Shown one piece after another: positions 1-14,335 of a stretch of 23,029 nucleotides of DNA. Source of the DNA: a virus (taxonomy: Duplodnaviria; Heunggongvirae; Uroviricota; Caudoviricetes); IMG/VR virus record IMGVR_UViG_2703718857_000002; one strand, written 5' to 3'. Position 1 is the stretch's first letter; every line of letters begins with the position of its first letter. The position numbers and the translations under genes were made by a program. The notes below the pieces were generated by a model. That model did no database searches, was not told the DNA's origin, and saw only the letters and a list, made by a program, of their open reading frames with translations.

Positions 1-549
1 TCAGCTAGCTGGAAACTTTTTATACAGAGTTGAGAGCCCTACTCCATACGTTTTTGATACGCTTTGTCGTGATTCACCGGTTGCCATCCGCTCCCCCATT
101 TCCCGCCATTGCTCATCCGTGAACTTAGGCCTGCGACCACCAACTCGCCATTTTGCCCTGGCTACGGCCAGCCCTGCTAAGGTACGTTCGCTATTAAGAT
201 CAGATTCATATTGTGCTGCGGAAAGGATGTTACGAAAGTTATAGCGGCCGCTGGCTGTTTTGAGATCCACGCCATCGGTAATACTGCGGAAGTTGATACC
301 CTTTTCCTGTAACTGCTGGAACATCAACAGCGCATGCAGAACGTTGCGGCCTATCCTGTCCAGCTTCCAGACCACCAGTTCATCCCCCGGCTGCATAGTG
401 GCGATCAGCCGTTTTAGAACCGGCCGATTCGATTTCCTCCCGCTGGCATGCTCTTCAAAAATTTTCTCACAACCCGCTGACTTGAGCGCCGTTAGTTGCA
501 ATTCAGTGTCCTGGTGGTTTGTTGATACTCGGGCATAACCGTAAATCAT
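1..549 (-). CDS. Serine recombinase of the DNA-invertase (Hin/Gin/Cin/Pin) family, 182 aa
   Basis: Complete ORF: ATG at 549..547, stop TGA at 3..1. N-terminus MIYGYARVSTNHQD carries the catalytic-serine motif of small serine recombinases; C-terminal HTH (SVSKTYGVGLSTLYKKF). AGGAGAA Shine-Dalgarno lies within the upstream palindrome. Family assignment is from established knowledge of the family. Confidence 0.9.
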   Translation of the reverse strand: MIYGYARVSTNHQDTELQLTALKSAGCEKIFEEHASGRKSNRPVLKRLIATMQPGDELVVWKLDRIGRNVLHALLMFQQLQEKGINFRSITDGVDLKTASGRYNFRNILSAAQYESDLNSERTLAGLAVARAKWRVGGRRPKFTDEQWREMGERMATGESRQSVSKTYGVGLSTLYKKFPAS

Positions 550-1241: not shown

Positions 1242-1559
1242 CTAAACAACCGCATTGTCCTGGCGCACATCGCAGATAGTAAACGTCACGACGCCGATGA
1301 CAGTAACATCGTCCAGGGCTTCGCCCTCGATCGCTTCACCATCTTCAGTAATCAGTGACTTTCCTCTCAGCGTGGCAAGCTCCGTCCCGCCGCCGTGCTG
1401 TATAAGTAGTTGGCTACCCTGCTTTGGCTTCAGGGAGATATCCAGTACAACGTAACCACCAGATCGCTCGAAAACTAGCGTGTTTGGGCCGACATTGCAG
1501 ATCGAGTTAACAGACAACCTTTGCTCAACGTAGTCCGTCGCTGGTGAAGGGAATCCCAT
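1242..1559 (-). CDS. Hypothetical protein, 105 aa; distal gene of a LexA-box-controlled two-gene operon
   Basis: ATG at 1559..1557 overlaps the TAA of the upstream gene by 1 nt (TAATG); GGAGGG Shine-Dalgarno upstream. Translation MGFPSPATDYVEQRLSVNSICNV... with no family I can recognise. Confidence 0.55.
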   Translation of the reverse strand: MGFPSPATDYVEQRLSVNSICNVGPNTLVFERSGGYVVLDISLKPKQGSQLLIQHGGGTELATLRGKSLITEDGEAIEGEALDDVTVIGVVTFTICDVRQDNAVV

Positions 1560-1798
1560 TAGATCACCCTCCCCATGTTGGCCATCATCCACAAACGGTT
1601 TTCGCTATGGTCGGTGGTTTTGTCGACAAAGTACGTCTGCTCTCTAGATATCCACGCATTAGCCTCTGCGTCGGTAAAGTGCAGCCCACGCCGGCGCAGC
1701 GCTGACACAAAATCCTTTGTGTGCAGGTACTGGTAGCCTTTGGAGTTGCGCAATACCGACTCGCGGAAAGCCGCGGCGATGTCTGACTGTCGAAGCAT
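1559..1798 (-). CDS. Hypothetical protein, 79 aa; proximal gene of a LexA-box-controlled operon
   Basis: ATG at 1798..1796 preceded by GGAGGG at about -8; the GTG at 1819 used in the ORF track lies inside the LexA box and is less likely. Translation MLRQSDIAAAFRESVLRNSKGYQYLHTKDF...; no family recognised. Confidence 0.6.
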   Translation of the reverse strand: MLRQSDIAAAFRESVLRNSKGYQYLHTKDFVSALRRRGLHFTDAEANAWISREQTYFVDKTTDHSENRLWMMANMGRVI

Positions 1799-1816
1799 GA
1801 TCTGCCCTCCGATAAA

Positions 1817-1836
1817 CACTGTTTTTATATACAGTA
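1817..1836. promoter_or_regulatory. LexA (SOS) box CACTGTTTTTATATACAGTA
   Basis: CTGT-N8-ACAG with an AT-rich spacer; 17 of 20 positions match the enterobacterial consensus TACTGTATATATATACAGTA. Sits about 20 bp upstream of the 79-aa gene start, overlapping the likely -10 region. Confidence 0.7.
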
Positions 1837-1905
1837 GTTTTAAGTGAGCGGCAGATCAATGCTGGTTGTGGCTATCAATCCCTGCGTCAGTAGCAAACTA
1901 TTGTT

Positions 1906-2709
1906 TTAGCTATAGCGCCCATTAACCAGGTTGATGTCATCTGAAAGAATCTCTAAGGCATTTTTACTTGTTAGCGTCAGGTCATCTAATCGACCGCGAT
2001 ACACTCCACCATTCACCGAGAGTGATGTCGTTGTTATTTCAGCATCCCCCAGCCGCGCCAGAGTAATTGCTGCAGGATAAGCAACAATCGCTGAGAATGA
2101 GCTCTCATACTTCAGTACGCCATCAAGGTAGAGGCGCGATTTCTGCATTGTTCCATCAGAAGAAACTACGCGCTCAACAGCAACCTGGTGGACATTCCCA
2201 TCAAAAAGCCCTGACAGGAATGAGTACGCATTAATCACCTCTCCGTGGTTAATCACCTGCAATGCGCTCGCGGCAGTTGTTGAAGAGAATGTCGGGCGCA
2301 GCCAAAACAGCGTGTTCGCTGCGTTACTGGGTGTGCCATTTGTCAGAGCCACCAGGAATGAGTTGGAAGTAGCAGCAGCAGCACCTGTTACTTTCAGCCA
2401 GAACGTATACAGATAATTTGTCATCCCTGATGTGGCAATCATTGATGCCGGGAGATTAATTCCCTGCGCATGAACTGAGTTCAGTTCGTACCCATTACCA
2501 GCTGCTGTCAGATCAGAGTTAGCTGTCGCGTTGTCGTCGACATAGCACATGTTTTTGATTTGCGCACCAGCAACGAGGTCTGCCCCCGCGCCAGACCATG
2601 TGTTATGGAATGAAATTAACCCCTTCGTCCCACTATTAATCGAGCCATCACGATAAAGAATATCGCCAGTTGCGACAATTACATCATTTCGTTTCTCAAA
2701 CGGACCCAT
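1906..2709 (-). CDS. Lectin-like (concanavalin A / LamG-like) protein, 267 aa
   Basis: ATG at 2709..2707 lies 1 nt after the stop of the upstream 709-aa gene, indicating coupling. Motifs ...LFDGNVHQVAVERVVSSDGTMQKSRLYLDGVL... resemble the beta-sandwich core of LamG/ConA-like domains; domain call is by pattern only. Confidence 0.55.
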   Translation of the reverse strand: MGPFEKRNDVIVATGDILYRDGSINSGTKGLISFHNTWSGAGADLVAGAQIKNMCYVDDNATANSDLTAAGNGYELNSVHAQGINLPASMIATSGMTNYLYTFWLKVTGAAAATSNSFLVALTNGTPSNAANTLFWLRPTFSSTTAASALQVINHGEVINAYSFLSGLFDGNVHQVAVERVVSSDGTMQKSRLYLDGVLKYESSFSAIVAYPAAITLARLGDAEITTTSLSVNGGVYRGRLDDLTLTSKNALEILSDDINLVNGRYS

Positions 2710-2710
2710 T

Positions 2711-4840
2711 TTACACCCACCCTAATAATTGAAATTTCTGGTAAATAAATTCAGCGTTTACGTCCGCGCCAGCCTGCAATGCATATTCAGGGGCGTTAGA
2801 TGTTTCTTTCGATTGGCTAGGATGCAGTCCGTCATACTTCAATGAAGTTGGAGGGATATCATTTCCAAAGTCAGAAACGTCCTGAGAATATGCTGGATTA
2901 TAGTTGTTTACGAAGTTTTCTCTCATATCAACACTATCAATTTCGCACCATAACTCAGGGTATTTCTTTTTAATCATGCTGTTTGATAACATGACGTTTG
3001 CATAACCTGCTGATCCACGGGGCTCAACACTGCTGTTAAAATCAGGCAGGATAATAACCTTCTGCCCAAGAGATTTAAGGTATTCAACTACACCAATAGT
3101 GTCGCTGAGAACCTGCATTGACTGGCTAATATTATTCCTTCCCATCCAGAAAATATTTATACATTCAGGGTGAAGAGGGAAAGATGTTCCTGCCGGAATT
3201 CCTCCGGTAATAGCACCAGTGGTCACCGGATCGCAAATGAATGGCACGGCAACAGGCACGTTAACCGCATCACCAGATGCATCACGTGTGAATGTGGCAT
3301 TAGTTCCATCCCATGAAAAATTGCCTGGAATGCCAGCCAGAGAACCGTGGAACGGCGTCGATGCTGCGGCGTTGGCAAAATAACTCAGTGGCCCCGGGTT
3401 TGCCGGAGAAAGAGTTACCGAACCGCTGGCAGGAATGCTGCCGCCAACTGGAACGTAATACGCTCTGCGCCCACCCTGAGCAGCAGCTGTGCCAACGCTT
3501 GTGCGTGAGCTTTTGCCAAAGTTATAGGCCGTGTAGCCGGTTAGCTCCTGCAGGTGTGTCAGCATACGGGGGTTATCAACCATTGAATGGCCCCACCCGC
3601 AAATGATCGGCCTGGACATTACAGAGTGCTCAGTCAGATCATTGATATAGCAATAATACTGCCCACCCGGTGCGCGATTAGTCTCCCTGTCCGATTGCCA
3701 GATAACCTTATCACCATCAACGCGTGGCAAGGTTTCATTACTGGATGTATTGGTTACACGAACCTGCTGACCTGTATCGCGATCAAACAGGAAAATCTGC
3801 TCATAGCCTTCTTTCTCTTCGCTAAATGCAATGTAATCAGGCTGACCTGAATTTGTCAGGTCCGATGATTTCAGCGACTCGATAACAACCAGGTTTTCAG
3901 ATGTGGATGCAGAAATGTATCCACTATCTGCATACTCATCAGGTGAGAGAAACGTTACTGACTCTGGAAGAGGTGATAATGCGTCAGTAACACCCTTTAC
4001 CTCTGTAAAATCGCTTCCTTCAATTACCGCATCGCCAACAACAATTTTGCTAAAATAAATGGTGGTGCCTTTAATGCCAACAATAATTCTATTGTTTTCA
4101 GAAAAAGTTGCTGAGTCATACCCTGAATCCGAAAATTCAGATATATCGACAAAAGTCGAAGCCTGTAAAAAAGGAACGATTCCAAGAAGGCTCTGCCCGG
4201 AAATTAAAATGTCGTTTCCTGAAAGGATTTCAGCAGCGAATTGATCTGCGCTGATTTCCCCCGCTCTGATTTTTTGGAAAAACCACTCGACACCTTTCCT
4301 GGATAGTAGTATTTTTTTATTTTCATCTAGTATAGCCTCTTCCACCCCAGAATCTTTATATTCATCAGGAGGAAAGAACTCTGACGCCTGTGTTATATTT
4401 AACAAAGGAGAGTAGGGATCAATAGCATCATCTACATACTTCTTAGATGGCATTTTTCTACCGGTGGGCTCAAGAGTGCCACCATTGTTAATTACTTCAA
4501 TAGCCAGCGCGCTATCGTCAGGGCTGCGGTAATACGTGGTAGAACCCACCGGGATATTCGCTATATCCGCCTGCGCCGCTGCCAGCGTCATGTATTGCCG
4601 GCTGAGAGGGATCAGGTTTTGGCGGGCTTCATCAATAACAGCGTCGGTAGCAGCTGCCATTTTTTTAGTAGCCCCAATTATCGTATCCCGGGCGTTACCA
4701 AAACGATCTATAAAAGTATCGCTTTCGCTGTTCAGGAAATCATCGTACGCCAGGGCGTTATCATTCAGATCCTTCATGCTATTTGAAGGTCTTGGATTGC
4801 CGGTATTATATCTTTTGTCCATACCTGTTCCTGTCTTCAT
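2711..4840 (-). CDS. Large protein (about 709 aa) with internal beta-rich repeats and a C-terminal SGNH/GDSL-like hydrolase motif set; putative receptor-binding esterase
   Basis: Long ORF; preferred start ATG 4840 or 4822 (the latter has AGGAACAGG upstream), since the first ATG at 4891 has no RBS. Residues about 165-400 hold at least 4 repeats with recurring (S/P)xDEYxDSGY...SEN. The C-terminal half has GHSM, FGKSS, GRNN and DGLHP in the order of SGNH blocks I, II, III and V. No signal peptide. Confidence 0.6.
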   Translation of the reverse strand: MKTGTGMDKRYNTGNPRPSNSMKDLNDNALAYDDFLNSESDTFIDRFGNARDTIIGATKKMAAATDAVIDEARQNLIPLSRQYMTLAAAQADIANIPVGSTTYYRSPDDSALAIEVINNGGTLEPTGRKMPSKKYVDDAIDPYSPLLNITQASEFFPPDEYKDSGVEEAILDENKKILLSRKGVEWFFQKIRAGEISADQFAAEILSGNDILISGQSLLGIVPFLQASTFVDISEFSDSGYDSATFSENNRIIVGIKGTTIYFSKIVVGDAVIEGSDFTEVKGVTDALSPLPESVTFLSPDEYADSGYISASTSENLVVIESLKSSDLTNSGQPDYIAFSEEKEGYEQIFLFDRDTGQQVRVTNTSSNETLPRVDGDKVIWQSDRETNRAPGGQYYCYINDLTEHSVMSRPIICGWGHSMVDNPRMLTHLQELTGYTAYNFGKSSRTSVGTAAAQGGRRAYYVPVGGSIPASGSVTLSPANPGPLSYFANAAASTPFHGSLAGIPGNFSWDGTNATFTRDASGDAVNVPVAVPFICDPVTTGAITGGIPAGTSFPLHPECINIFWMGRNNISQSMQVLSDTIGVVEYLKSLGQKVIILPDFNSSVEPRGSAGYANVMLSNSMIKKKYPELWCEIDSVDMRENFVNNYNPAYSQDVSDFGNDIPPTSLKYDGLHPSQSKETSNAPEYALQAGADVNAEFIYQKFQLLGWV

Positions 4841-4862
4841 CTTTTCAATGAAGCAATTAAGA

Positions 4863-4891
4863 TTGACGACCCGCCCCTTCAGGGCTAACAT
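4863..4891 (+). promoter_or_regulatory. Candidate sigma70 promoter for the regulator/acyltransferase operon
   Basis: TTGACG (4863..4868), 17-bp spacer, TAACAT (4886..4891), about 30 bp upstream of the ATG at 4924. The spacer contains a small GCCC...GGGC inverted repeat. Read by eye, not scored. Confidence 0.35.
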
Positions 4892-4923
4892 CGCCTTACG
4901 TGTTTAAACGGTTAAGTAAGAGA

Positions 4924-5187
4924 ATGATTTTAATAAATAAATACACTCCTCCAACGCAGGAAGATTTAGCCAGACTGAAATCCGCAATAAACTACTCCGG
5001 AAACCAAATGGCAGGGCTCGCAGGTGTAGCCAGCGATAGCCAATGGCGGAAATACACTGGCGGAGAGAGCCCCAGGGTAATGTCAAGACACATACTGTTT
5101 TATATTGCAGCTCAGCTTGTTCTGTCTGATGAGCAACTTAACAATGTAATAAATAAAATGCGCGATATTGGCGCGGAGATAAAATAA
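4924..5187 (+). CDS. Small XRE-type helix-turn-helix protein, 87 aa; putative regulator of the downstream acyltransferase
   Basis: ATG at 4924 with AAGAG-type Shine-Dalgarno (the ORF track starts at GTG 4900). Segment ...GNQMAGLAGVASDSQWRKYTGGESPRVMSRHILFYIAAQL... fits an XRE-like HTH pattern. Its stop overlaps the acyltransferase ATG (TAATG). Confidence 0.55.
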   Translation: MILINKYTPPTQEDLARLKSAINYSGNQMAGLAGVASDSQWRKYTGGESPRVMSRHILFYIAAQLVLSDEQLNNVINKMRDIGAEIK

Positions 5188-6278
5188 TGCTTGGCCTAAT
5201 AAGGTTTTTTTTGGCATCGTGCGTCATTGCTTTTCACTTAACGGCTCGCATACCTGCACTTGGCAACTTTGCAGTGAATTGCTTCTATGTTATCAGTGGT
5301 TTTTTAATAACATACATTTTGCATGAAACATACAAGTTCAACTTCTCTATGTTTTGGAAAAATAGAATACTGAGGTTATTCCCGGCATATATATTTTTTC
5401 TCGTCATGGGCTTTCTTATTATAAAATTAATTCCATCCGCAAAGGAATTCCACTCAAACTGGACAGGCAATTTCTTACCTGGAGATTTATTAGGAAACCT
5501 CTTAATCTTCCCCTGGGCTTTCCTTTCTGATAATGCTGTAGCAAATCCATTCGGTGCCTTTTCATCCATTTATCACTTTGCTATTGATGGTAATAGATTC
5601 AGAATAGTCACATCATCATGGTCAGTGGGTGTTGAGATAACATGTTATTTTTTATTGTGGCTTTTCATAGCCCGAAATAAATTTACAGCCATTACGTCGA
5701 TTCTGCTTTCACTGCTTTATCATGCTTACGTATATGTAGTACACCATTCTTTTGATATGGCGTATTTCCCATTCCTTGCTGCAACACTTCCTTTTAGCAT
5801 GGGTTCTCTGGGTTATTTTGCCCATAGAAAGTTCAAAGCTATGTATCTTTCTCCACACAAAGCTTTTTTAATAACATTTATTTGCATCGGGATTTTTATT
5901 ACCAATTGGTATTTATATACAATTAATGCATTAGGTCAGTACAACATAATACTTTACTACACCAATAATGTAATAGCATTGTTTACAACCCTGGTATTAT
6001 TAAAAATAAAGACAAACATACATCTTGAGAAAATACTCAAGTGGTTTGGTGACCTGGCCTATCCAATTTTTCTTTGTCAATATTTTGGTGGATTTCTAGC
6101 ATGGCTTGCTATTGGTGGTGAAAATCGTGGCTTATCCATCTTTTTATTAGGCTACCCAATATCAATTGCACTTGGGATCGTTTGTGTAATATTAATAGAC
6201 AAGCCACTAATTAAAATTAGAGCAAAAATAAGGGCGGACGCTCAAAGCAAAAATAATCAGGAAAACTCTTCAAGGTAA
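5187..6278 (+). CDS. Acyltransferase family 3 (AT3) integral membrane protein, 363 aa; probable O-antigen/LPS O-acetyltransferase (Oac/OafA-like)
   Basis: N-terminal His in the first hydrophobic segment (...VIAFHLTARIPALG...) and the VNCFYVISGFLIT motif typical of AT3 acyltransferases; multiple hydrophobic segments throughout. Gene body is visibly AT-rich, roughly one-third G+C by eye. The LPS substrate is inferred from the prophage tail-fibre context. Confidence 0.8.
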   Translation: MLGLIRFFLASCVIAFHLTARIPALGNFAVNCFYVISGFLITYILHETYKFNFSMFWKNRILRLFPAYIFFLVMGFLIIKLIPSAKEFHSNWTGNFLPGDLLGNLLIFPWAFLSDNAVANPFGAFSSIYHFAIDGNRFRIVTSSWSVGVEITCYFLLWLFIARNKFTAITSILLSLLYHAYVYVVHHSFDMAYFPFLAATLPFSMGSLGYFAHRKFKAMYLSPHKAFLITFICIGIFITNWYLYTINALGQYNIILYYTNNVIALFTTLVLLKIKTNIHLEKILKWFGDLAYPIFLCQYFGGFLAWLAIGGENRGLSIFLLGYPISIALGIVCVILIDKPLIKIRAKIRADAQSKNNQENSSR

Positions 6279-7042
6279 ACTAAACCATTCGCTCCTTTTC
6301 CTGATGAATAGTTACCATTCCCCCCGGCACCACCTGAGCCGGGGAAACCGCCATCATCGCCAGAACTACCGAAGTGGCCATTGCCACCCGTTGATGAAAA
6401 TGCAGATCCTCCAGCCCCGCCAATAAAAGCATCAGAACCATAATACAGACCACCTTGAGATATTCCGCCAGTAATATTTAAAATGTTCCCGCCACTTCCG
6501 ATACCTCCAGCAGGAACTGTAGCCCCGCCACCACTCCCTCCAGTAGCTGAGATTAAACTCCCGAACCTTGTATCACCACCATTCCCACCTTTAGACGAGA
6601 CACCAGCAGCAACAGCACTGCCACCAGTACCTATCGTCACAGATATAGTTTCGTTATCAGAAATATTAAATAACCCTTCCGAAAATCCACCAGCACAACC
6701 TCCAGATGCGCCCACACTAACTGGAGCATTCTGGCCACCTCCCCCCGCTCCCCAAACTTTCACCCGCACTCTTTTCGTCCCTTTAGTTGGAGTGTAAGTC
6801 CCTGACTTAGTAAAGGTGACAATATTAAGCAGGCGACCGCCACCAATCGCTTTAAGAACCTGTGAATCATCATCAGGATCAAGCTCAAGCCCCGCGCCCT
6901 CAACAACGTTTACCAGCTCACGCTGAAAGGTATTCATCATCTCAGCATTAATTATTGTCGGTGAAATACCATTAGCGACATTACCATTAGTGTATTCACC
7001 ATTAGCATCAGCGGTGTCAGTTGTACTGCCAACTTTTCTCAT
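6257..7042 (-). CDS. Glycine-rich tail fibre protein, 261 aa
   Basis: ATG at 7042..7040 with AAGAAGG Shine-Dalgarno. Lies immediately downstream of the gp48-like gene, where Mu-type fibres sit. N-terminal region ...ISPTIINAEMMNTFQRELVNVVEGAGLELD... is followed by a GGxGG-rich low-complexity C-terminal half. Its 3' end overlaps the acyltransferase 3' end by 22 bp (convergent). Confidence 0.7.
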   Translation of the reverse strand: MRKVGSTTDTADANGEYTNGNVANGISPTIINAEMMNTFQRELVNVVEGAGLELDPDDDSQVLKAIGGGRLLNIVTFTKSGTYTPTKGTKRVRVKVWGAGGGGQNAPVSVGASGGCAGGFSEGLFNISDNETISVTIGTGGSAVAAGVSSKGGNGGDTRFGSLISATGGSGGGATVPAGGIGSGGNILNITGGISQGGLYYGSDAFIGGAGGSAFSSTGGNGHFGSSGDDGGFPGSGGAGGNGNYSSGKGANGLVYLEEFS

Positions 7043-7068
7043 ATAAACCTTCTTTTTAAATGTCTGAA

Positions 7069-7743
7069 TTAAACGTAACCAGAAGCGATATCAAATATTC
7101 TGGCAAACTCAGGCGTGACTTCGTAAACCCCCTCATCGTTAAAACCGAAATAGATATAGCCGAATTTGACCAGGGTGTATGAGGGGGCGAGGGCATTAAT
7201 CCGGCATTCAAGCTGACGATTACCCCAGGAACGTAATGGATCGCCACAATAACTCAGACCTGCACGGGCATAAGTTATCGTTGTGTCTTCCGCCTCTACC
7301 AGCCAGACAAATGGCCAGTCATCCCCATTTAGCCCGTCACCACATACCGATAAGCCAGCACGCGCCTGCCGGTATTCCTTAATCGAAATCGTATAACCCA
7401 TTGCTGCGGCAATACTGATGAAATAGCTCTTTGACTGCCCGCCGGTACTGATGAGTTTCGATACAATGGCAGACTGACGCTTCGCAATCGTATCCACTTC
7501 GCCAATCGAGCAATCATCAGGTAAGCCGAGTGTTTTTTCCCACTCGGTGAGCATAATCGTCGCAGTTTTTGGAAAGGCACCGCGCAGCAATGCAAGTGCG
7601 TCGTTATCACTACGCTGGAAACTGGCCGCAATGGCCCGCAGCACAGCAGCCTGAACAGCTTTTGGATCCCGTGTCCACGCTCGGCCGGTGGGGATAAGCG
7701 CCTGCAGTGCCTTCTGATAATCGTCTGTTGAGAAAAGGCTCAT
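7069..7743 (-). CDS. Baseplate protein, DUF2313 / Mu gp48-like (YmfQ-like), 224 aa
   Basis: N-terminus MSLFSTDDYQKALQALIPTGRAWTRDP...TEWEKTLGLPDDC matches the conserved start of Mu gp48-family proteins. ATGA overlap with the upstream J-like gene. Confidence 0.75.
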   Translation of the reverse strand: MSLFSTDDYQKALQALIPTGRAWTRDPKAVQAAVLRAIAASFQRSDNDALALLRGAFPKTATIMLTEWEKTLGLPDDCSIGEVDTIAKRQSAIVSKLISTGGQSKSYFISIAAAMGYTISIKEYRQARAGLSVCGDGLNGDDWPFVWLVEAEDTTITYARAGLSYCGDPLRSWGNRQLECRINALAPSYTLVKFGYIYFGFNDEGVYEVTPEFARIFDIASGYV

Positions 7744-8888
7744 GTGTAGTTCACCTCGCCACGAACAGCCAGCTCCCCAACTCCCGGCTCAATATTCGCA
7801 GAAGGCGACACAAGGATATAACCTGAAGTACCGGCAACATCCCCTATCGCGCGGTTGAGATCTGAAAGGTAAATTTTCCCTGTGCCGAGCGGGTTAGCAG
7901 ATTCAAACAATACCCCGTCAATCGCATCAGCAATGGCCGCAGTCGTTGCGCTGTCGGCATCAGATATCCCGCTTATTTCAAAATCGATAACGCGTTCGAT
8001 GGGAGAGCAGACATAGTTAAGGGAGGTAACCGGCGCAAGCGGATACATATAATCGGCAACTCTCCCCTGATCCCCGGTGGCTTTTACAGCCCCCCACTCT
8101 TCCAGTTGAGAGACACCGTCAGTTCCTGCAGGGAATCCATGATTGGTTTTATCATCGCCGTCGCACATGATGTAAATCACCACGGTACCCGGCCCCATCC
8201 CCCGGCGCCGTATCCATGCCCTGGTGATCCCCGACACGGATAAAGCCCAGCTTTTATAATCAGTGTCACTCCCGCCCTGCGGGGGATTCTGATACGCCAG
8301 CAGACCACGTAATCGGAAATCCTCTTCACTTTCAATGTTGGCGCCGCCGGTGGCGGGCTCAATCAGCGTAACCGAGCTGTCTATGCCGGGGGCATTAGCA
8401 TCCAGTGTAAGAATGGTGCCAGCATCGGCATTTCCGGAAGCGCCTCCTCCTGTCACATCGTCTGTGATATCCGGCAAAACCGCTGTTACAGCAACCGACG
8501 CACTGCCAGCAGTGTTTATCGTTATGGCATCATCGGTTGTGTACTGGTAACCATCATCACGGTTTAACACCGCCCCTTTTGACAGTGTTTTCCCCGGCGT
8601 TCCGGTAACGGTCGCCGCCGGAGAGCGTGCTGCCGTTGCGGCTTTTCGGTAAATCTGCTTTAGCGCCATCCATCCGGCAAGCCACTCATCGGTAGAGGTG
8701 AAAGGCGTGCTCTGACGGGCAATATAATCCAGGTAGGCGTAGTGCAGATGGGCCATGCCCGCATCCATATCAGCGAGCACCTTAAGGTTGCCAAACCGTA
8801 ACAGCGCGCCAACACTTTCAAGCTCTGCCTGCATAAACTGGCGATTCTCCTGCCGGAGCTCGCTCAGTGTTTTCCGCTTAAATGGCAT
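7740..8888 (-). CDS. Baseplate J-like protein (Mu gp47 / P2 gpJ family), 382 aa
   Basis: Size, position between the gp46-like and gp48-like genes, and overall sequence character fit the baseplate J family. Overlapping start/stop on both sides indicates a coupled operon. Confidence 0.75.
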   Translation of the reverse strand: MPFKRKTLSELRQENRQFMQAELESVGALLRFGNLKVLADMDAGMAHLHYAYLDYIARQSTPFTSTDEWLAGWMALKQIYRKAATAARSPAATVTGTPGKTLSKGAVLNRDDGYQYTTDDAITINTAGSASVAVTAVLPDITDDVTGGGASGNADAGTILTLDANAPGIDSSVTLIEPATGGANIESEEDFRLRGLLAYQNPPQGGSDTDYKSWALSVSGITRAWIRRRGMGPGTVVIYIMCDGDDKTNHGFPAGTDGVSQLEEWGAVKATGDQGRVADYMYPLAPVTSLNYVCSPIERVIDFEISGISDADSATTAAIADAIDGVLFESANPLGTGKIYLSDLNRAIGDVAGTSGYILVSPSANIEPGVGELAVRGEVNYT

Positions 8889-9327
8889 TATTCAGTTGCT
8901 CCCATAGCCAGAAGAATTTGAACTCCTGCCAGTCCCCCGCCGGCGGCAAATACCGGATGATGAGGTTCAGCCTATTCGGGAAAACAATCTCTGACTGAGC
9001 CTCTATCGCTGCTGCAATACCATCCGACTTCATCCAGGCCAGAGCCTCTTCGGCATAATCTTCAGCTCTCATCGCCACTTCGCGCGTCAGTTTTTCACGC
9101 CGCAGTAGCCACAGCCTTGAGCCAATATTCCGGTCGTTGTCCAGATCCCCCCACCAGCCGCGGCGGTCAGTTCCTTCATAATCATCATCAGCGCGCGCCA
9201 GTCCGTCAGTAAACAAACTGATAATTATGGCCGTGTGCATATCATTCTCAGATGTCAGTACGCCGTTACCGGTTTGCCAGTCAGCATGAATGGCATCCAC
9301 ATCCCAGAATGAGGAAATATCACTCAT
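8878..9327 (-). CDS. Baseplate protein, Mu gp46-like (GP46 family), 149 aa
   Basis: Size and position between the spike and J-like genes; 4-bp overlap with the spike gene. Family call by synteny plus pattern. Confidence 0.65.
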   Translation of the reverse strand: MSDISSFWDVDAIHADWQTGNGVLTSENDMHTAIIISLFTDGLARADDDYEGTDRRGWWGDLDNDRNIGSRLWLLRREKLTREVAMRAEDYAEEALAWMKSDGIAAAIEAQSEIVFPNRLNLIIRYLPPAGDWQEFKFFWLWEQLNNAI

Positions 9328-9905
9328 ACCTGACTCTCTGTTTTTTCGCTTATGATCGTGCTATCGCCGGACTGAACTTTTTTAACGTCATGGTCATGAT
9401 CGTTGTGAGCATCCCGCAGCGCTTTGAGCGTTGAATTGTTCGTCTCGCAGTTATCGATGATGTCACCCGTCACCAGGAGTTTGGGGGTAACCAGCTTTAC
9501 CTGTTCCGTTGCCGTCGCGGTGATGTTTCTGGCATTATTGATCTCTACATCTTTGCCTTTCGCATCAATGAAAATTCCCTCCTCGGTCAGATGAATATTC
9601 ATCCCCTGCTGGTTATAGACCACGGTTTCGCCTGGCTTAAGCCCGGTATACCGGAAGCTTTGATGGTTAGAGGCAATGACGACAGGACTGGAGCGGTCCC
9701 CGCCGAGAAAGGCAATAAGCACATCCGATCCCGCCGGTAACCCCGATGAAAAACCAAAATCAGAGAGCCGTGGGGCGCTGGCCACTTCCAGCGGAGTCTG
9801 GTACTGGATTTCCTGCACAACCCCGCTATCTTTCTGCGTGGTAATACGGCCAATGCCCAGCATGCCGGCGATGCGCGTGGCCGATTTCTTTAAATTTTGA
9901 TTCAT
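9324..9905 (-). CDS. Baseplate central spike / assembly protein V (Mu gp45 / P2 gpV-like), 193 aa
   Basis: Size, synteny, and a C-terminal His-rich motif HNDHDHD (nt 9387..9407) of the kind that coordinates metal at the tip of contractile-tail spikes. Confidence 0.7.
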   Translation of the reverse strand: MNQNLKKSATRIAGMLGIGRITTQKDSGVVQEIQYQTPLEVASAPRLSDFGFSSGLPAGSDVLIAFLGGDRSSPVVIASNHQSFRYTGLKPGETVVYNQQGMNIHLTEEGIFIDAKGKDVEINNARNITATATEQVKLVTPKLLVTGDIIDNCETNNSTLKALRDAHNDHDHDVKKVQSGDSTIISEKTESQV

Positions 9906-10777
9906 TGGTTTAGTCCGGGTATTTGCTGGTAGAAAGCATAAGGCTGGACAGCGAAAGCCTCCGGGGGCATCAGATAAAGGCGCGCATGGGTGCCGTCACT
10001 GTCTCTGATATAAGTCACCTCTGCGATAAGCAATTCGGTGTCAGGCAGCTGCAGACTCGGGATGTTGACCGGGATAAGCGTATTCGGCTCCCATAATTTC
10101 CCGGATTTATCGCGCCAGGAATCAATCGTCACCGTTAACTGACGGGAACGGCCGTATCGGCGGTTCATCTCCCAGTCAATCGCTCGCTGAGCCTGTTGTG
10201 AAGCCATCAGTGTACTTTCAACAATAATGATCCGTTTTCGGTAACGCATACTGGCCGCCTCAGGATCGCGGGCCGTCGCCAGCGTCACCGAATCATAAGC
10301 CGTATCTGGCGAGAATCCTGCAATCGGCGAAATGCTCATCGATACGCCGACGTAATCAGAAAAGCGGTCAGCCATCGAACGGCGGTAATAAGCCTGTTCG
10401 ATATTTACCCCTTCTGCGATACCGCTGGCCGCGCGCTTTGTCCCCACCCGGGTCAGAAATAAGTTACCGTCAGGCTGATCGTAATAAAGCAATGCCGACC
10501 AGCGGGAGACACGATCAAGTATTTCCTGTGGCGATTCCCCCCAGTTCAGGGAAAATTGCGGAACTTTCACCAGATCATCAACGTCTGTACTTACGCCAAT
10601 GTTGTAATGGGATGCGAGGCGGGAGGCTATATCAAGCGCATTACTGTTATTGATGACGTTATTTGGCCATTCAGCAGAGCAATCAACGAGATCTGCGCAC
10701 TTACTGCGGCCTGAGGCTCTGACTTCATGGCGCGAACGGGAAATAGCAGGCGACCAGTCATCAACATACCCCGTCAC
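9902..10777 (-). pseudogene. 5'-truncated baseplate hub gene (Mu gp44 / P2 gpD family), 291 codons retained
   Basis: Frame opens at a GTG at 10777 that overlaps the portal stop codon in a different frame. C-terminal region ...LLIAEVTYIRDSDGTHARLYLMPPEAF resembles the conserved end of gpD-family proteins. Full-length homologues are about 380 aa (from memory), implying loss of roughly 90 N-terminal residues. Confidence 0.5.
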
Positions 10778-11931
10778 TACCAGGTACCGGATGAGAAATT
10801 ACGCAATACTGCAGACTCGAAAACCTCAAAGTTGCTGTAAGGGCGGGCAGCGTTGACCGTTGTTATTCTCTCCCCTGGATAAAGGATCGGCATACGGGCG
10901 CCATTCTGCAGCGTCAAACGGCGATCATTATGAAACTCTGCACGACCATCCTGGTATGCTCCCAATCCCTCTTCGAAGTTTTCCCCCAGCGCGGACTGGA
11001 TCATTTCGGGATCGTATGGAGACTCAATATACGCGGCGAAGATAGCATTCAGAATTGCTGCTTCCAGCTCGCTCTGGTCGTACTTCACCAGCATCTTCAG
11101 ACGTTGCACTACTGGAGTCAGAATGCCATTCCCCCGATGCTGAGCTCCACGCTCATGGTCAAAGTCGTGCACAACGTGCGGGCGCCCCCATGCGGTTTCG
11201 CGCGGGATTCGTCGCCATGTCATTGTTTTGGCGCCACTCCACCAGTCACCGATATGTGCTTCACGTATGTGATAAGCCACAGGTGCGCCGTCAGCATCAA
11301 TTTCAACGCCGCCGCGGATATTCGGCATATCAAAATTCTGCTGCGGGTTACTGAGTCTGTCGGGATCAACAACCTGCACCGTCGTGGCATAACGCCCCTT
11401 ACCTGGTCCAAGGCGATCGGTGCGATACTGAAGCACCATCAGGGCATCGCCATCAATCAGCTTGTGGCGAAAGGCCAGACGCAACATTTGTGGAACGGTT
11501 AGCTTGCGCTCAACGTCACAATAACGGCCTGTGTCGTATGCCCAGGTTCTCCAGTGGGAAGCGAGTGCTTTTCCGTACTCTTCCGCCCATACTGCGTCAA
11601 AACTTTTATTACCTGTCATCATCCGTAATACACGATAGTCAGGCTTCATGATCGGACGGAAATTGGCGCCGACCGCATTATCAAGCAGGCGAGTTATGGC
11701 ACCATTGGCCCATCCATCATTTCGGACCAGATCCCGCGCACGGGAAACTATACGGTCACGGTAGATATTAATTTCGTTATCCGGTGACCATAGTGCGGGC
11801 TGCCAGTTCGCCAGTTGATCGCTGAAGGAATCCGCGGCGTCATATGGCACCCGGCTACCGCCCGTCAACATGCTGGGTTTTGGTGCCTGATAAGGTCTCC
11901 CGTCAGGACCAAGGATTTGCACTTTATTCAT
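10777..11931 (-). pseudogene. 3'-truncated portal gene (lambda gpB family), 384 codons retained
   Basis: N-terminus MNKVQILGPDGRPY, the VERKLT motif and ...AILNAIFAAYIES... parallel lambda gpB; the ORF stops at ...NFEVFESAVLRNFSSGTW, where lambda-family portals continue for about 140 more residues (from memory). Start overlaps the gpW-like stop by 1 nt. Confidence 0.65.
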
Positions 11932-12202: not shown

Positions 12203-14335
12203 TTATTGCGGCAGGAGTTTAGAAATGTTCTTACGCTTAACAGGAGCCATAGCCTCATCCACGATGGCACCCGGTAATTCGTAATTGATTTTTTCTTCTG
12301 GCTCGGCTGGCGCCGGCAGGAACTTATCGGGATCGGCCTGAAGGTTAGCGGCCCGAACATTGAGTTTTAATCCCATATGTTTCAGCCCACACAACGCGGC
12401 ATAGCTGTAAACGAGGCAGTCGAGTGCTTCGTTCGCCCGTCCGGGGATAGGCTCCCAGACACTGAATCGCTGACCGGCCACCACTTTATAAACCAGTCGC
12501 TCGGCCAGCAGCTGGTTGAAATATCCGAGGTCACGATCATCCGGGAAGTGCATATAGCCCGCACCGGCAGTACCTAAAGCTGGCGGTTCAAGATGCAGAC
12601 GACCACGGACAACATCTTTCGCAGAGTTCACGCCAAGTATAATTGGCCTGAAGCTGGCTTTACTTTTCGATGTCGGTCGCTTGGTTGGCCAGACGGGGTT
12701 GCGTTTCCCACCCTGCGCAGATTCGCCCTTGATAGCCCAGACGCGGCGCCCAAGGCGATCTTTGCAGAACTCATAAACCTTTTGCGTGTGGTGACCGCCG
12801 GAGTCCATACATGCAGCCAGAATATTCAGCCCTCGCCCGTCGCCGCGTCGCCATATCTGTTTCAGGTACGCATCGAGGCGCTTCCAGGGTTCCTCAGTCT
12901 CCAGATCGCCATAAATGACGTCATGCGCAACTGACCACGATTCCTCGTCCCGCCCCCAGCCAGTGATCGTGATTTCGAATCGGTCATCCTGGGTATCGAC
13001 GCCCGCAGTTAACAATGCCACGCCATCAGGAACGACGGCCGGGAAGACTTCACGGCGCGCCAGCAGGACATCAACCGGGAGCTGTTTCCCGTGGTTAGGC
13101 CGGTGCGGCAACCCCATCTGGGTGTTCCACCAGGCCTGTTCCTTATCCGGATCCCCTTTCGCATCGAGGTATTTCTTTGCAATGTCCGATGGCTTATCTT
13201 TTTGCCAGGGACTGAAGAGTTTTGACGCCTGGTACCCGGCGTGGTGATTATCCAGCGCCTCGGCCCCGCAGTCCGGGCAAATCGCCCGGTATACGGCATG
13301 CCGTTCCGACTCTGACCAGCGCCAGACGGCATCAACACTGCCCTCGTCTCCTTCATGCCATTTCTGGTCGTATTCCATTAATGGTGAATGGCGGGAACCA
13401 CAACATTCAAACGGTTTGGTCTGATGCCAGCGGATTGTCTGTAATGCCCGCAGACGCTCACCCTCTGACCAGCCAGCACCACAACATTCACAATGGATCA
13501 TGGCCGCTTTGGTCAGGTGCTTATCACCTTCTTTTGGCCATTGAACATGTTTGAAGAAATCAAGGAACTGTCGGTGCCCGCAATGGGGGCAAACTACAGA
13601 GGCCCGCCGCTGATCTGAATCTTCGTAACTGTCAGCAATCCGGCTTTCATCTTCGACCGTCGGCGAACAAGCCCGCACGGACAGCCAGTTAAGGCCAAAT
13701 GTGGCGGTTCGCTCTTCCGCCAGAGCGATGGGATCGCCCTCACGGGTAATCGGATATTTATCCACCTCATCTGCCAGCAGAACACGGATCGGACGGCGCG
13801 CAAGGTTATCTGGACTACCGGCGCCGGCCAGCGCCAGAAATCCGCCGGTGAAAGCTTTATACAGAATGGTTTCTTTTGAACTCTTCTGCTTTGAGTCACC
13901 TATGATGTTACGCAGAACTGGCGTTACCCTAACCAGCGGGCTGATGCGTTCTTTGGAAAACTGCTCAGCGGCCTCTTCCTTCGGCTGCAGGAGCAAAATC
14001 GGACATGGGTCGAGGTGCGCAAAATAACCAAACAGGTTTTCCAGCAGCGCGGTTTTCATTAACTGGGTACAGCACATCACGGTGATAATGTGGACGCCCG
14101 ATTCCGTCGCGGCCAGCATAGGACCGCGGGCAATTTCAACCGTTGATGTTTCCCAGTTCCCGGAGGTACTGCCAGCTTCTTTCGCCAGCTTCCGGTAGTC
14201 ATCGGCCCATTGCGGGACGCTGATCCGCGGCGGCGGTGTCCACCCTTTCCGGACACTCAGTTGAAGACGCTCAATCTTCCGCTGGGTTAAACTCTGGTTC
14301 TCCGAGGACTGAGATATGTTTGTGGACATGTTCAA
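12203..14335 (-). CDS. Terminase large subunit (lambda GpA family), 710 aa
   Basis: Long ORF with cysteine-rich zinc-finger-like cluster (CPHCGH...CECCGAGW...CPDCG) and overall resemblance to GpA-type terminases. Immediately downstream of and overlapping the Nu1-like gene. Confidence 0.85.
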   Translation of the reverse strand: MNMSTNISQSSENQSLTQRKIERLQLSVRKGWTPPPRISVPQWADDYRKLAKEAGSTSGNWETSTVEIARGPMLAATESGVHIITVMCCTQLMKTALLENLFGYFAHLDPCPILLLQPKEEAAEQFSKERISPLVRVTPVLRNIIGDSKQKSSKETILYKAFTGGFLALAGAGSPDNLARRPIRVLLADEVDKYPITREGDPIALAEERTATFGLNWLSVRACSPTVEDESRIADSYEDSDQRRASVVCPHCGHRQFLDFFKHVQWPKEGDKHLTKAAMIHCECCGAGWSEGERLRALQTIRWHQTKPFECCGSRHSPLMEYDQKWHEGDEGSVDAVWRWSESERHAVYRAICPDCGAEALDNHHAGYQASKLFSPWQKDKPSDIAKKYLDAKGDPDKEQAWWNTQMGLPHRPNHGKQLPVDVLLARREVFPAVVPDGVALLTAGVDTQDDRFEITITGWGRDEESWSVAHDVIYGDLETEEPWKRLDAYLKQIWRRGDGRGLNILAACMDSGGHHTQKVYEFCKDRLGRRVWAIKGESAQGGKRNPVWPTKRPTSKSKASFRPIILGVNSAKDVVRGRLHLEPPALGTAGAGYMHFPDDRDLGYFNQLLAERLVYKVVAGQRFSVWEPIPGRANEALDCLVYSYAALCGLKHMGLKLNVRAANLQADPDKFLPAPAEPEEKINYELPGAIVDEAMAPVKRKNISKLLPQ

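Follow-up and report, generated by a model that had tools for sequence, protein, structure and literature searches.

The tail-fibre locus of IMG/VR virus record IMGVR_UViG_2703718857_000002, a stretch of 23,029 nucleotides (the window, to whose full length all coordinates refer), contains on its minus strand a gene for a 703-residue protein, the fibre protein, that appears to be a receptor-binding protein. We consider it likely that this protein is a side fibre or spike of a temperate Escherichia coli phage, which combines a contractile tail of the Mu type with early and lysis genes of the lambdoid kind, and that its tip is an SGNH esterase which most likely O-deacetylates a surface polysaccharide. 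As judged from its sequence, the protein is a well-supported addition to the established SGNH-esterase phage receptor-binding proteins and belongs to the family of the epsilon15 gp20 C-terminal domain; what is modestly new is a strictly linked gene for a ConA-like partner, a PD40-like neck and a misleading public annotation. An initial annotation, made from the DNA letters, had suggested a receptor-binding protein carrying an SGNH esterase, and the fold, the retained catalytic positions and the tail locus bear it out, the activity being predicted from sequence and model; the novelty it implied does not hold, as tail fibres and spikes with an SGNH esterase form a class that has a name and has been characterised experimentally (G7C gp63.1; PMC9569702; PMC13123978).

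The C-terminal half is predicted to be an SGNH hydrolase in which the catalytic positions are kept. An AlphaFold2 (AF2) model of the fibre protein, built on a 50-sequence alignment, has a predicted local distance difference test score (pLDDT) of ~90 for residues 400-703 and places there a three-layer alpha/beta/alpha fold with a central parallel sheet; Foldseek agrees, so that the structural check proposed in the initial annotation returned the SGNH fold, and the folds that match best (7tog, 7pzg and 7ddy) are those of carbohydrate and sialic-acid esterases. Conservation was followed in 50 database homologues and, as an independent set, in 56 distinct homologues encoded on viral contigs of IMG/VR; the loci of the latter were collected with the C-terminal-domain alignment as query. 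G411, S413, G561, R562, N563, D664, L666, H667 and P668 are invariant in the 50-sequence alignment, and among the IMG/VR homologues the Ser and the Asn occur in 56 of 56 and the Asp and the His in 55 (one has a gap); the catalytic motif positions are thus kept in both sets. The Asp and His of block V are invariant in a distant alignment (A2) as well, and in distant homologues of 25-33% identity a GDSL motif falls in the column of the fibre's GHS, with Ser413 aligned with the Ser of GDSL. One distant homologue (P0131) passes the Pfam thresholds for both PF13472 and PF00657, and a close homologue (P0119) scores 25.7 bits, under the threshold of 32.9. All peptide strings quoted in the initial annotation are present, with GHSM, FGKSS, GRNN and DGLHP in the order given, DGLHP lying at 2819..2833 and not, 3 nucleotides off, at 2822..2836. 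Their assignment to SGNH blocks stands for I, III and V and fails for II, where the Gly of FGKSS is three residues upstream of the canonical Gly column.

The nearest relative of solved structure is part of a classical tailspike. Against PDB sequences, phmmer matched only 9sij and 9sim, both named ‘Tail spike protein’ (E 1.6e-47, 36-38% identity over ~290 residues; query 414-708 against chain 83-369), and tblastn of the aligned segment identified them at 100% identity as fragments of the tailspike of Salmonella phage epsilon15, the segment being its last ~290 residues (AY150271.2, 22360..23220). The C-terminal domain of epsilon15 gp20 (9sij, 9sik, 9sil, 9sim and 9sin) is a true sequence homologue of fibre residues 404-703, and the two have in common the GHS, GRN and DxLHPS motifs and a ~100-residue ‘VGGSIPASG’ insertion. 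In epsilon15, unlike here, the domain is appended to a ~1070-residue beta-helix endorhamnosidase spike of a podovirus, which has neither the PD40 neck nor the 75-residue repeats nor a gene for the ConA-like partner (present in 0 of 10 epsilon15-type loci). Since this homologous SGNH-type domain has the same Ser, Asn and Asp/His, the classical epsilon15 endorhamnosidase spike may carry an esterase as well; a literature search found no publication describing the function of the domain. The O antigen targeted by the epsilon15 spike is O-acetylated.

Characterised SGNH fibres are linked to our protein by analogy. The tailspike gp63.1 of E. coli phage G7C (PDB 4QNL) is an O-antigen deacetylase, as cited in two later papers (PMC13123978; PMC9569702), and the fibre may work in a similar way; the two have no sequence homology detectable by phmmer (E<=1), and gp63.1 differs in domain order, in its N4-type attachment via gp66 and in its accessory domains. 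Gp66 of Pectobacterium phage Possum, likewise a tail fibre with an SGNH domain, deacetylates the host O-polysaccharide, as determined by nuclear magnetic resonance (PMC9569702), but its SGNH domain lies in the middle of the protein, ahead of a separate binding domain at the C-terminus, the phage is N4-like, and its partner gp67 is an adaptor, whereas the partner in the window is a lectin-fold protein. C-terminal SGNH ‘brush’ fibres are prevalent in Enterobacterales prophages, and the Klebsiella prophage fibres 164_08-KL2 and 174_38-KL55, which like ours are temperate-phage fibres with a C-terminal SGNH domain, hydrolyse p-nitrophenyl acetate (PLoS Biol 2026, PMC13123978); neither a PD40/TolB-like neck nor a ConA-like partner is mentioned in that paper (0 occurrences of ‘propeller’ or ‘TolB’). 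Homologues of the fibre protein itself number in the hundreds in Klebsiella, at 37-47% identity. An active SGNH enzyme might instead have another chemistry, as a lipase or lysophospholipase on outer-membrane lipid or on the acyl chains of lipopolysaccharide, or as an acyl-transferase. This seems to us unlikely, as the top fold matches are carbohydrate and sialic-acid esterases, all phage SGNH receptor-binding proteins characterised so far are glycan deacetylases, the epsilon15 homologue is on a spike that targets O antigen, and the partner has a carbohydrate-binding-type fold.

Several points weigh against an O-deacetylating fibre. No enzymology or virion proteomics was found for the fibre or any close homologue, and the assayed Klebsiella fibres are likened to it by architecture. 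The AF2 monomer model is unreliable in the shaft (pLDDT <50 for residues 134-330), and the prophage is defective (see below), which makes a current function of the fibre in its present host doubtful. Within the catalytic domain itself, the fibre protein, whole or as the isolated domain, has no Pfam match, the SGNH models (PF13472 and PF00657) included, and the canonical block II oxyanion-hole Gly column is Ser in the fibre and its nearest relatives, this column being Gly in 43 of the 50 database homologues and Gly in 36, Asn in 13, Ser in five and Ala in two of the 56 viral ones. With a non-Gly residue thus in 20 of 56 viral homologues, a block I that reads GHS instead of GDS and no Pfam match, the domain could be read as a binding-only pseudo-enzyme that recognises an acetylated glycan without hydrolysing it, the fibre being a plain adhesin. 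We find this improbable: Ser, Asn and Asp/His are invariant to ~25% identity, which is unexpected for a dead site; SGNH block II contributes a backbone amide to the oxyanion hole, and a change of side chain therefore need not abolish catalysis; and the Asp of GDS is not catalytic in SGNH enzymes. The missing Pfam match is probably due to the ~105-residue insertion that splits blocks II and III. All family members keep this insertion, including the epsilon15 and actinobacterial-type homologues; its PASG is invariant in alignment A2 (P62, A63, S64 and G65), and its strands (E454-530) are modelled at pLDDT ~90.

The assignment of the fibre as a receptor-binding protein, made from sequence, draws on its locus and on its N-terminus: the gene follows those for Baseplate_J and the Mu gp48 homologue, its homologues are found in tail loci, and its anchor is shared and swapped. 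The minus-strand open reading frame (ORF) without interruption is 2711..4891 in the ORF list of the window, with in-frame ATGs further upstream of 4822 at 4840 and 4891. We favour the ATG at 4822 (703 residues, the numbering used throughout) over that at 4840 (709 residues) because the RefSeq annotation and the N-termini of homologues align there; the ORF of ~709 residues in the initial annotation is uninterrupted, but begins six codons too early. The protein is 100% identical to WP_021571832.1, for which RefSeq gives exactly the bounds preferred here and which is found in E. coli chromosomes that match the fibre part of the window at 100%, and phrog_19652 covers its whole length (E 6e-176). 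Inspected by eye, the N-terminus is hydrophilic and has no signal-peptide-like stretch, as the initial annotation had stated, and a promoter and terminator scan around the gene found no excess of sites over shuffled sequence.

Fibre residues ~10-140 match the N-termini of >10 PHROG tail-fibre families, the matches being confined to this part; the anchor shares 50-65% identity with the N-termini of proteins from Klebsiella and E. coli phages, and residues 7-54 align with the N-terminus of the tail protein gp13 of Sf11, a stretch that the tail structure 9occ resolves. Such similarities indicate an anchor domain common to many unrelated receptor-binding protein bodies. Homologues of the fibre occupy tail loci in 79 IMG/VR viral contigs, in the E. 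coli ST540 and Klebsiella prophages, and in PEAT2 and JZBo1, and are annotated as tail spike or fibre in the lytic phages PEAT2, JZBo1 and Gungnir39, so that genomic context, too, agrees with the initial reading. No right-handed parallel beta-helix of the P22/Sf6 type is present in the fibre protein, from which a resemblance to such tailspikes had rightly been denied.

Between the anchor and the esterase, at least four tandem units of ~35 residues, resembling beta-propeller blades, had been proposed. We find instead a single core motif, (S/P)xDE(Y/F)xDSGxxxAxxxEN, in three copies at spacings of 78 and 65 residues (Smith-Waterman scores of 63-88, where shuffled sequence reaches 46 at most), and comparison of the family profile with itself by hhalign resolves ~2.5 copies of a ~75-residue unit (E 6e-17 over 105 columns, offset 75). 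The fourth of the strings that had been quoted, YIAFSEEKEGYEQ, scores 19-28 against the repeat unit, within shuffle range; to judge from these scores it is not a copy and opens a different, PD40/TolB-like stretch. On this neck Pfam PD40 scores 18.6 bits (gathering threshold 20.9), TIGR04275 30 bits, far under its cut-off, and the TolB model TIGR02800 26.1 bits against a 343-bit cut-off, in a match limited to residues 293-380; Foldseek gives local TolB matches (~110 columns, probability 1.0), and the AF2 model has six beta-strands at pLDDT 74-82. A beta-propeller across the whole repeat region is unsupported, there being only local TolB matches and a monomer pLDDT of <50 there; of the proposed blades, a sub-threshold signal survives in the last ~75 residues and none in the remainder of the region. 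The repeats may be either a trimeric shaft or degenerate blades. Speculatively, the two PD40 blades that each chain brings to a trimer might together make up a six-bladed propeller collar between the chains. A 2025 survey counted 18% of predicted ‘depolymerase’ domains of Klebsiella prophages as n-bladed beta-propellers of unclear function (PMC12491483), some of which may belong to the same PD40-plus-SGNH fibre family.

The PD40-like stretch explains the RefSeq name of the protein, ‘TolB family protein’, which appears to be a misnomer. The likeness to TolB, the beta-propeller protein of the Tol-Pal system, amounts to ~75-110 fibre residues resembling one to two PD40 blades, and unlike TolB the fibre has no signal peptide, TolB N-terminal domain or six-bladed propeller. 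Taken at face value, the name would suit a non-virion protein, either TolB-like and periplasmic or a lysogenic-conversion moron that acts with an acyltransferase on the host's own surface; an AT3-family O-acetyltransferase gene does adjoin on the opposite strand, and the fibre gene is intact although the prophage is defective. We nevertheless hold such a role to be very unlikely, given the lack of a signal peptide, the TolB model score of 26 bits against 343, an N-terminus that is a phage receptor-binding-protein anchor, homologues that are tail-locus genes of lytic phages without the acyltransferase, and an acyltransferase that is linked at 98-99% identity to several bodies and replaced by an unrelated slot gene in Klebsiella.

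The fibre gene is followed by a partner gene, the fibre stop and the partner ATG being 1 nucleotide apart, and the coupled lectin-like protein that the initial annotation had noted here has indeed a ConA-like/LamG fold. The AF2 model of the partner (pLDDT 90.8) is a two-sheet jelly roll with Laminin_G_3 profile similarity, and its profile matches a LamG-like PDB chain (E 8e-7), Laminin_G_3 itself being matched by seven of 41 members. An exhaustive representative search yields 48 representatives of the partner family, 250-290 residues long, and a word-indexed homologue search returned 16 relatives with the isolated C-terminal domain as query and one with the partner as query. Homologous partners follow the fibre homologues of the Pectobacterium podophage PEAT2 (35% identity) and of the 71.5-kb Klebsiella phage JZBo1 (31%), which we take from its size to be N4-like. 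Across the 79 IMG/VR loci, a partner-family ORF lies downstream of 66 of the 78 C-terminal-domain ORFs with room for one, starting in nearly all cases -12 to +16 nucleotides from the fibre stop and in a few up to 179 nucleotides away; the 12 partnerless ORFs are ten epsilon15-type spikes (~960-1084 residues) and two 5′ fragments of frameshifted genes. In myo-, podo- and N4-like phages alike, a fibre-type member is thus almost invariably followed by the partner, and an epsilon15-type spike never is. Pairwise identities of partners correlate with those of the SGNH domain (Spearman 0.54) and of the repeat/neck region (0.70), correlations whose p-values mean little because the pairs are not independent, and the partner diverges faster than the SGNH domain.

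The most likely role of the partner is either that of an accessory lectin subunit or that of a dedicated assembly factor; a lectin-type fold does not in itself prove that it binds sugar. It is a tentative idea, and one we would not favour, that the fibre and its 267-residue partner form an obligate two-protein receptor-binding module of an esterase and a separate lectin. The ConA-like partner, which has a conserved N-terminal arm, would then dock on the repeat/PD40 part of the fibre and supply glycan recognition in trans, whereas in the epsilon15-type spikes the beta-helix would supply it in cis.

Fibre body and partner appear to move as one cassette. We aligned the window by blastn to L008, an intact sister prophage that occupies the same chromosomal site in E. 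coli 23CRST046, and homology is found at 1-1201, 1556-1842 and 4461-10785 and nowhere within 1843-4460, the flanks of this cassette being 99% identical; the recombination breakpoints lie at window positions ~4460, inside the anchor domain, and ~1843. At 98-99.5% identity, E. coli genomes have in common the acyltransferase, the short fibre gene and the first ~120-127 fibre codons; the bodies behind this common part vary, and among them are a CotH kinase and a second SGNH/GDSL type that is unrelated to the one here. In E. coli ST540, a different prophage of the myovirus type has the same fibre body and downstream genes immediately behind its baseplate genes, and a Klebsiella quasipneumoniae prophage has an equivalent arrangement. 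In E. coli JNQH498 (L002) an alternative cassette occupies the same site (3602..5377 and 2850..3599) behind an identical N-terminal anchor; its body has different repeats and then an unrelated canonical SGNH domain (GDSW, GTND, DGLH), and its ~250-residue downstream protein is not detectably related to the window's partner (hhalign probability 0.4).

Taken together, we propose that the N-terminal ~125 residues dock the fibre to the baseplate or tail, as homology to anchored N-termini and the recombination breakpoints suggest, and that the ~2.5 repeats followed by two PD40-like blades form its shaft and neck. In the C-terminal domain, with its predicted esterase activity, Ser413 would act as nucleophile, His667 and Asp664 would form the charge relay, and Asn563 would belong to the oxyanion hole. 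On the model of G7C gp63.1, of Possum gp66 and of the Klebsiella fibres, the enzyme would most likely strip a surface polysaccharide, either O antigen or capsule, of its O-acetyl groups. Attachment would then be reversible and would modify the receptor, and the virion could advance to the outer membrane; the 267-residue ConA-like protein would be translationally coupled to the fibre and inherited with it as one cassette.

Table 1. Positions of the fibre gene, its predicted domains and catalytic codons, and neighbouring features in the window.
Feature	Position	Strand	Basis
Putative receptor-binding fibre gene, 703 residues plus stop	2711..4822	-	ORF list, RefSeq bounds, phrog_19652
N-terminal anchor/adaptor domain, residues 1 to ~131	4430..4822	-	PHROG, phage N-termini, 9occ alignment
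Repeat region, residues 135-317, ~2.5 copies of a ~75-residue unit	3872..4420	-	Smith-Waterman, hhalign
PD40/TolB-like neck, residues ~324-400, about two beta-propeller-type blades	3623..3853	-	Profiles, Foldseek, AF2
Predicted SGNH/GDSL hydrolase domain, residues 404-703	2714..3613	-	AF2/Foldseek fold, motif conservation
Ser413 codon (GHS, block I), predicted nucleophile	3584..3586	-	Conservation
Beta-rich insertion of ~105 residues between blocks II and III, with invariant ‘PASG’	3164..3475	-	Alignment A2, AF2
Asn563 codon (GRN, block III), predicted oxyanion hole	3134..3136	-	Conservation
Asp664-Gly-Leu-His667 codons (DxxH, block V), predicted acid/base pair of the triad	2822..2833	-	Conservation
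Partner gene, 267 residues, ConA-like/LamG jelly-roll (‘lectin’) fold	1906..2709	-	Profiles, AF2
Exchangeable cassette, fibre residues ~121-703 plus partner	1843..4460		blastn against L008
ORF of 95 residues	4900..5187	+	No Pfam match
AT3-family acyltransferase, 363 residues, O-antigen acetylase-like	5187..6278	+	Family match

The window pairs a Mu-type baseplate with lambdoid genes for early functions, lysis and packaging. The fibre gene is the distal end of the Mu-type baseplate/fibre module, with genes for Baseplate_J, a Mu gp48/YmfQ homologue and a short glycine-rich fibre (6257..7042) upstream on the same strand and terminase, lysis, Q, NinG and NinB genes farther upstream. A 710-residue ORF at 12203..14335 (minus strand) is the large terminase (phrog_15, E 5e-236), a match that rules out the tape-measure identity suggested by its size and position. 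An opposite-strand insert (4900..6278) separates the short fibre gene from the esterase fibre, the acyltransferase gene overlapping the 3′ end of the short fibre gene convergently by 22 nucleotides. The initial annotation was right to place the esterase fibre in the distal tail module, on the strand of the baseplate and fibre genes, and wrong to place it directly after them, because this acyltransferase and a 365-nucleotide gap between it and the fibre gene intervene. In the Klebsiella prophage the equivalent slot holds an unrelated 442-residue gene with no Pfam match, and the acyltransferase site therefore looks like a moron insertion hot spot. A dedicated pairing of the esterase with the neighbouring O-acetyltransferase was rejected, because the acyltransferase accompanies several other bodies at 98-99% identity and the Klebsiella slot gene is unrelated.

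Relative to L008, 10,773 bp are missing from the window at a junction at ~10,784, where a truncated portal ORF (10777..11931) abuts a truncated baseplate-hub ORF (9902..10777), both on the minus strand. Lost are the portal C-terminus, the S49 protease, the decoration and major capsid proteins, sheath, tube, tape measure, DNA-circularisation protein and the hub N-terminus. Because these head and tail genes are deleted, the prophage is defective and unable to make particles by itself, and its intact fibre gene is a stranded cassette, not part of a particle-forming phage.

At the other end, the prophage/chromosome border beside yciI-tonB carries a 182-residue serine recombinase (1..549, minus strand; Resolvase plus HTH_7). 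The Gin and Pin recombinases sit beside fibre genes, and an invertible fibre segment of this type was considered and rejected, the flanking inverted repeats being unconvincing (best pairs of 16-23 nucleotides at 74-88% complementarity). Two small genes (1242..1819, minus strand) accompany different fibre-plus-partner cassettes at the prophage end and were found in four prophages (L001, L002, L003 and L006); the first encodes 79-86 residues with no family match, the second 105-116 residues with a weak HumD/UmuD-like match (RefSeq ‘S24/S26 family peptidase’).

Recognition of this protein as a probable SGNH-esterase fibre corrects a name, ‘TolB family protein’, that is spreading through RefSeq and UniRef for a widespread receptor-binding protein of Enterobacterales prophages, and the sequence link joins its family to the solved C-terminal domain of the epsilon15 tailspike. 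Prophages of E. coli with Mu-type tails would thereby join those of Klebsiella in the recently described strategy of deacetylating rather than depolymerising. The strictly linked partner gene offers a handle on glycan recognition by SGNH fibres, and the shared anchor with its exchangeable cassettes of esterase body and partner may provide natural templates for host-range engineering.

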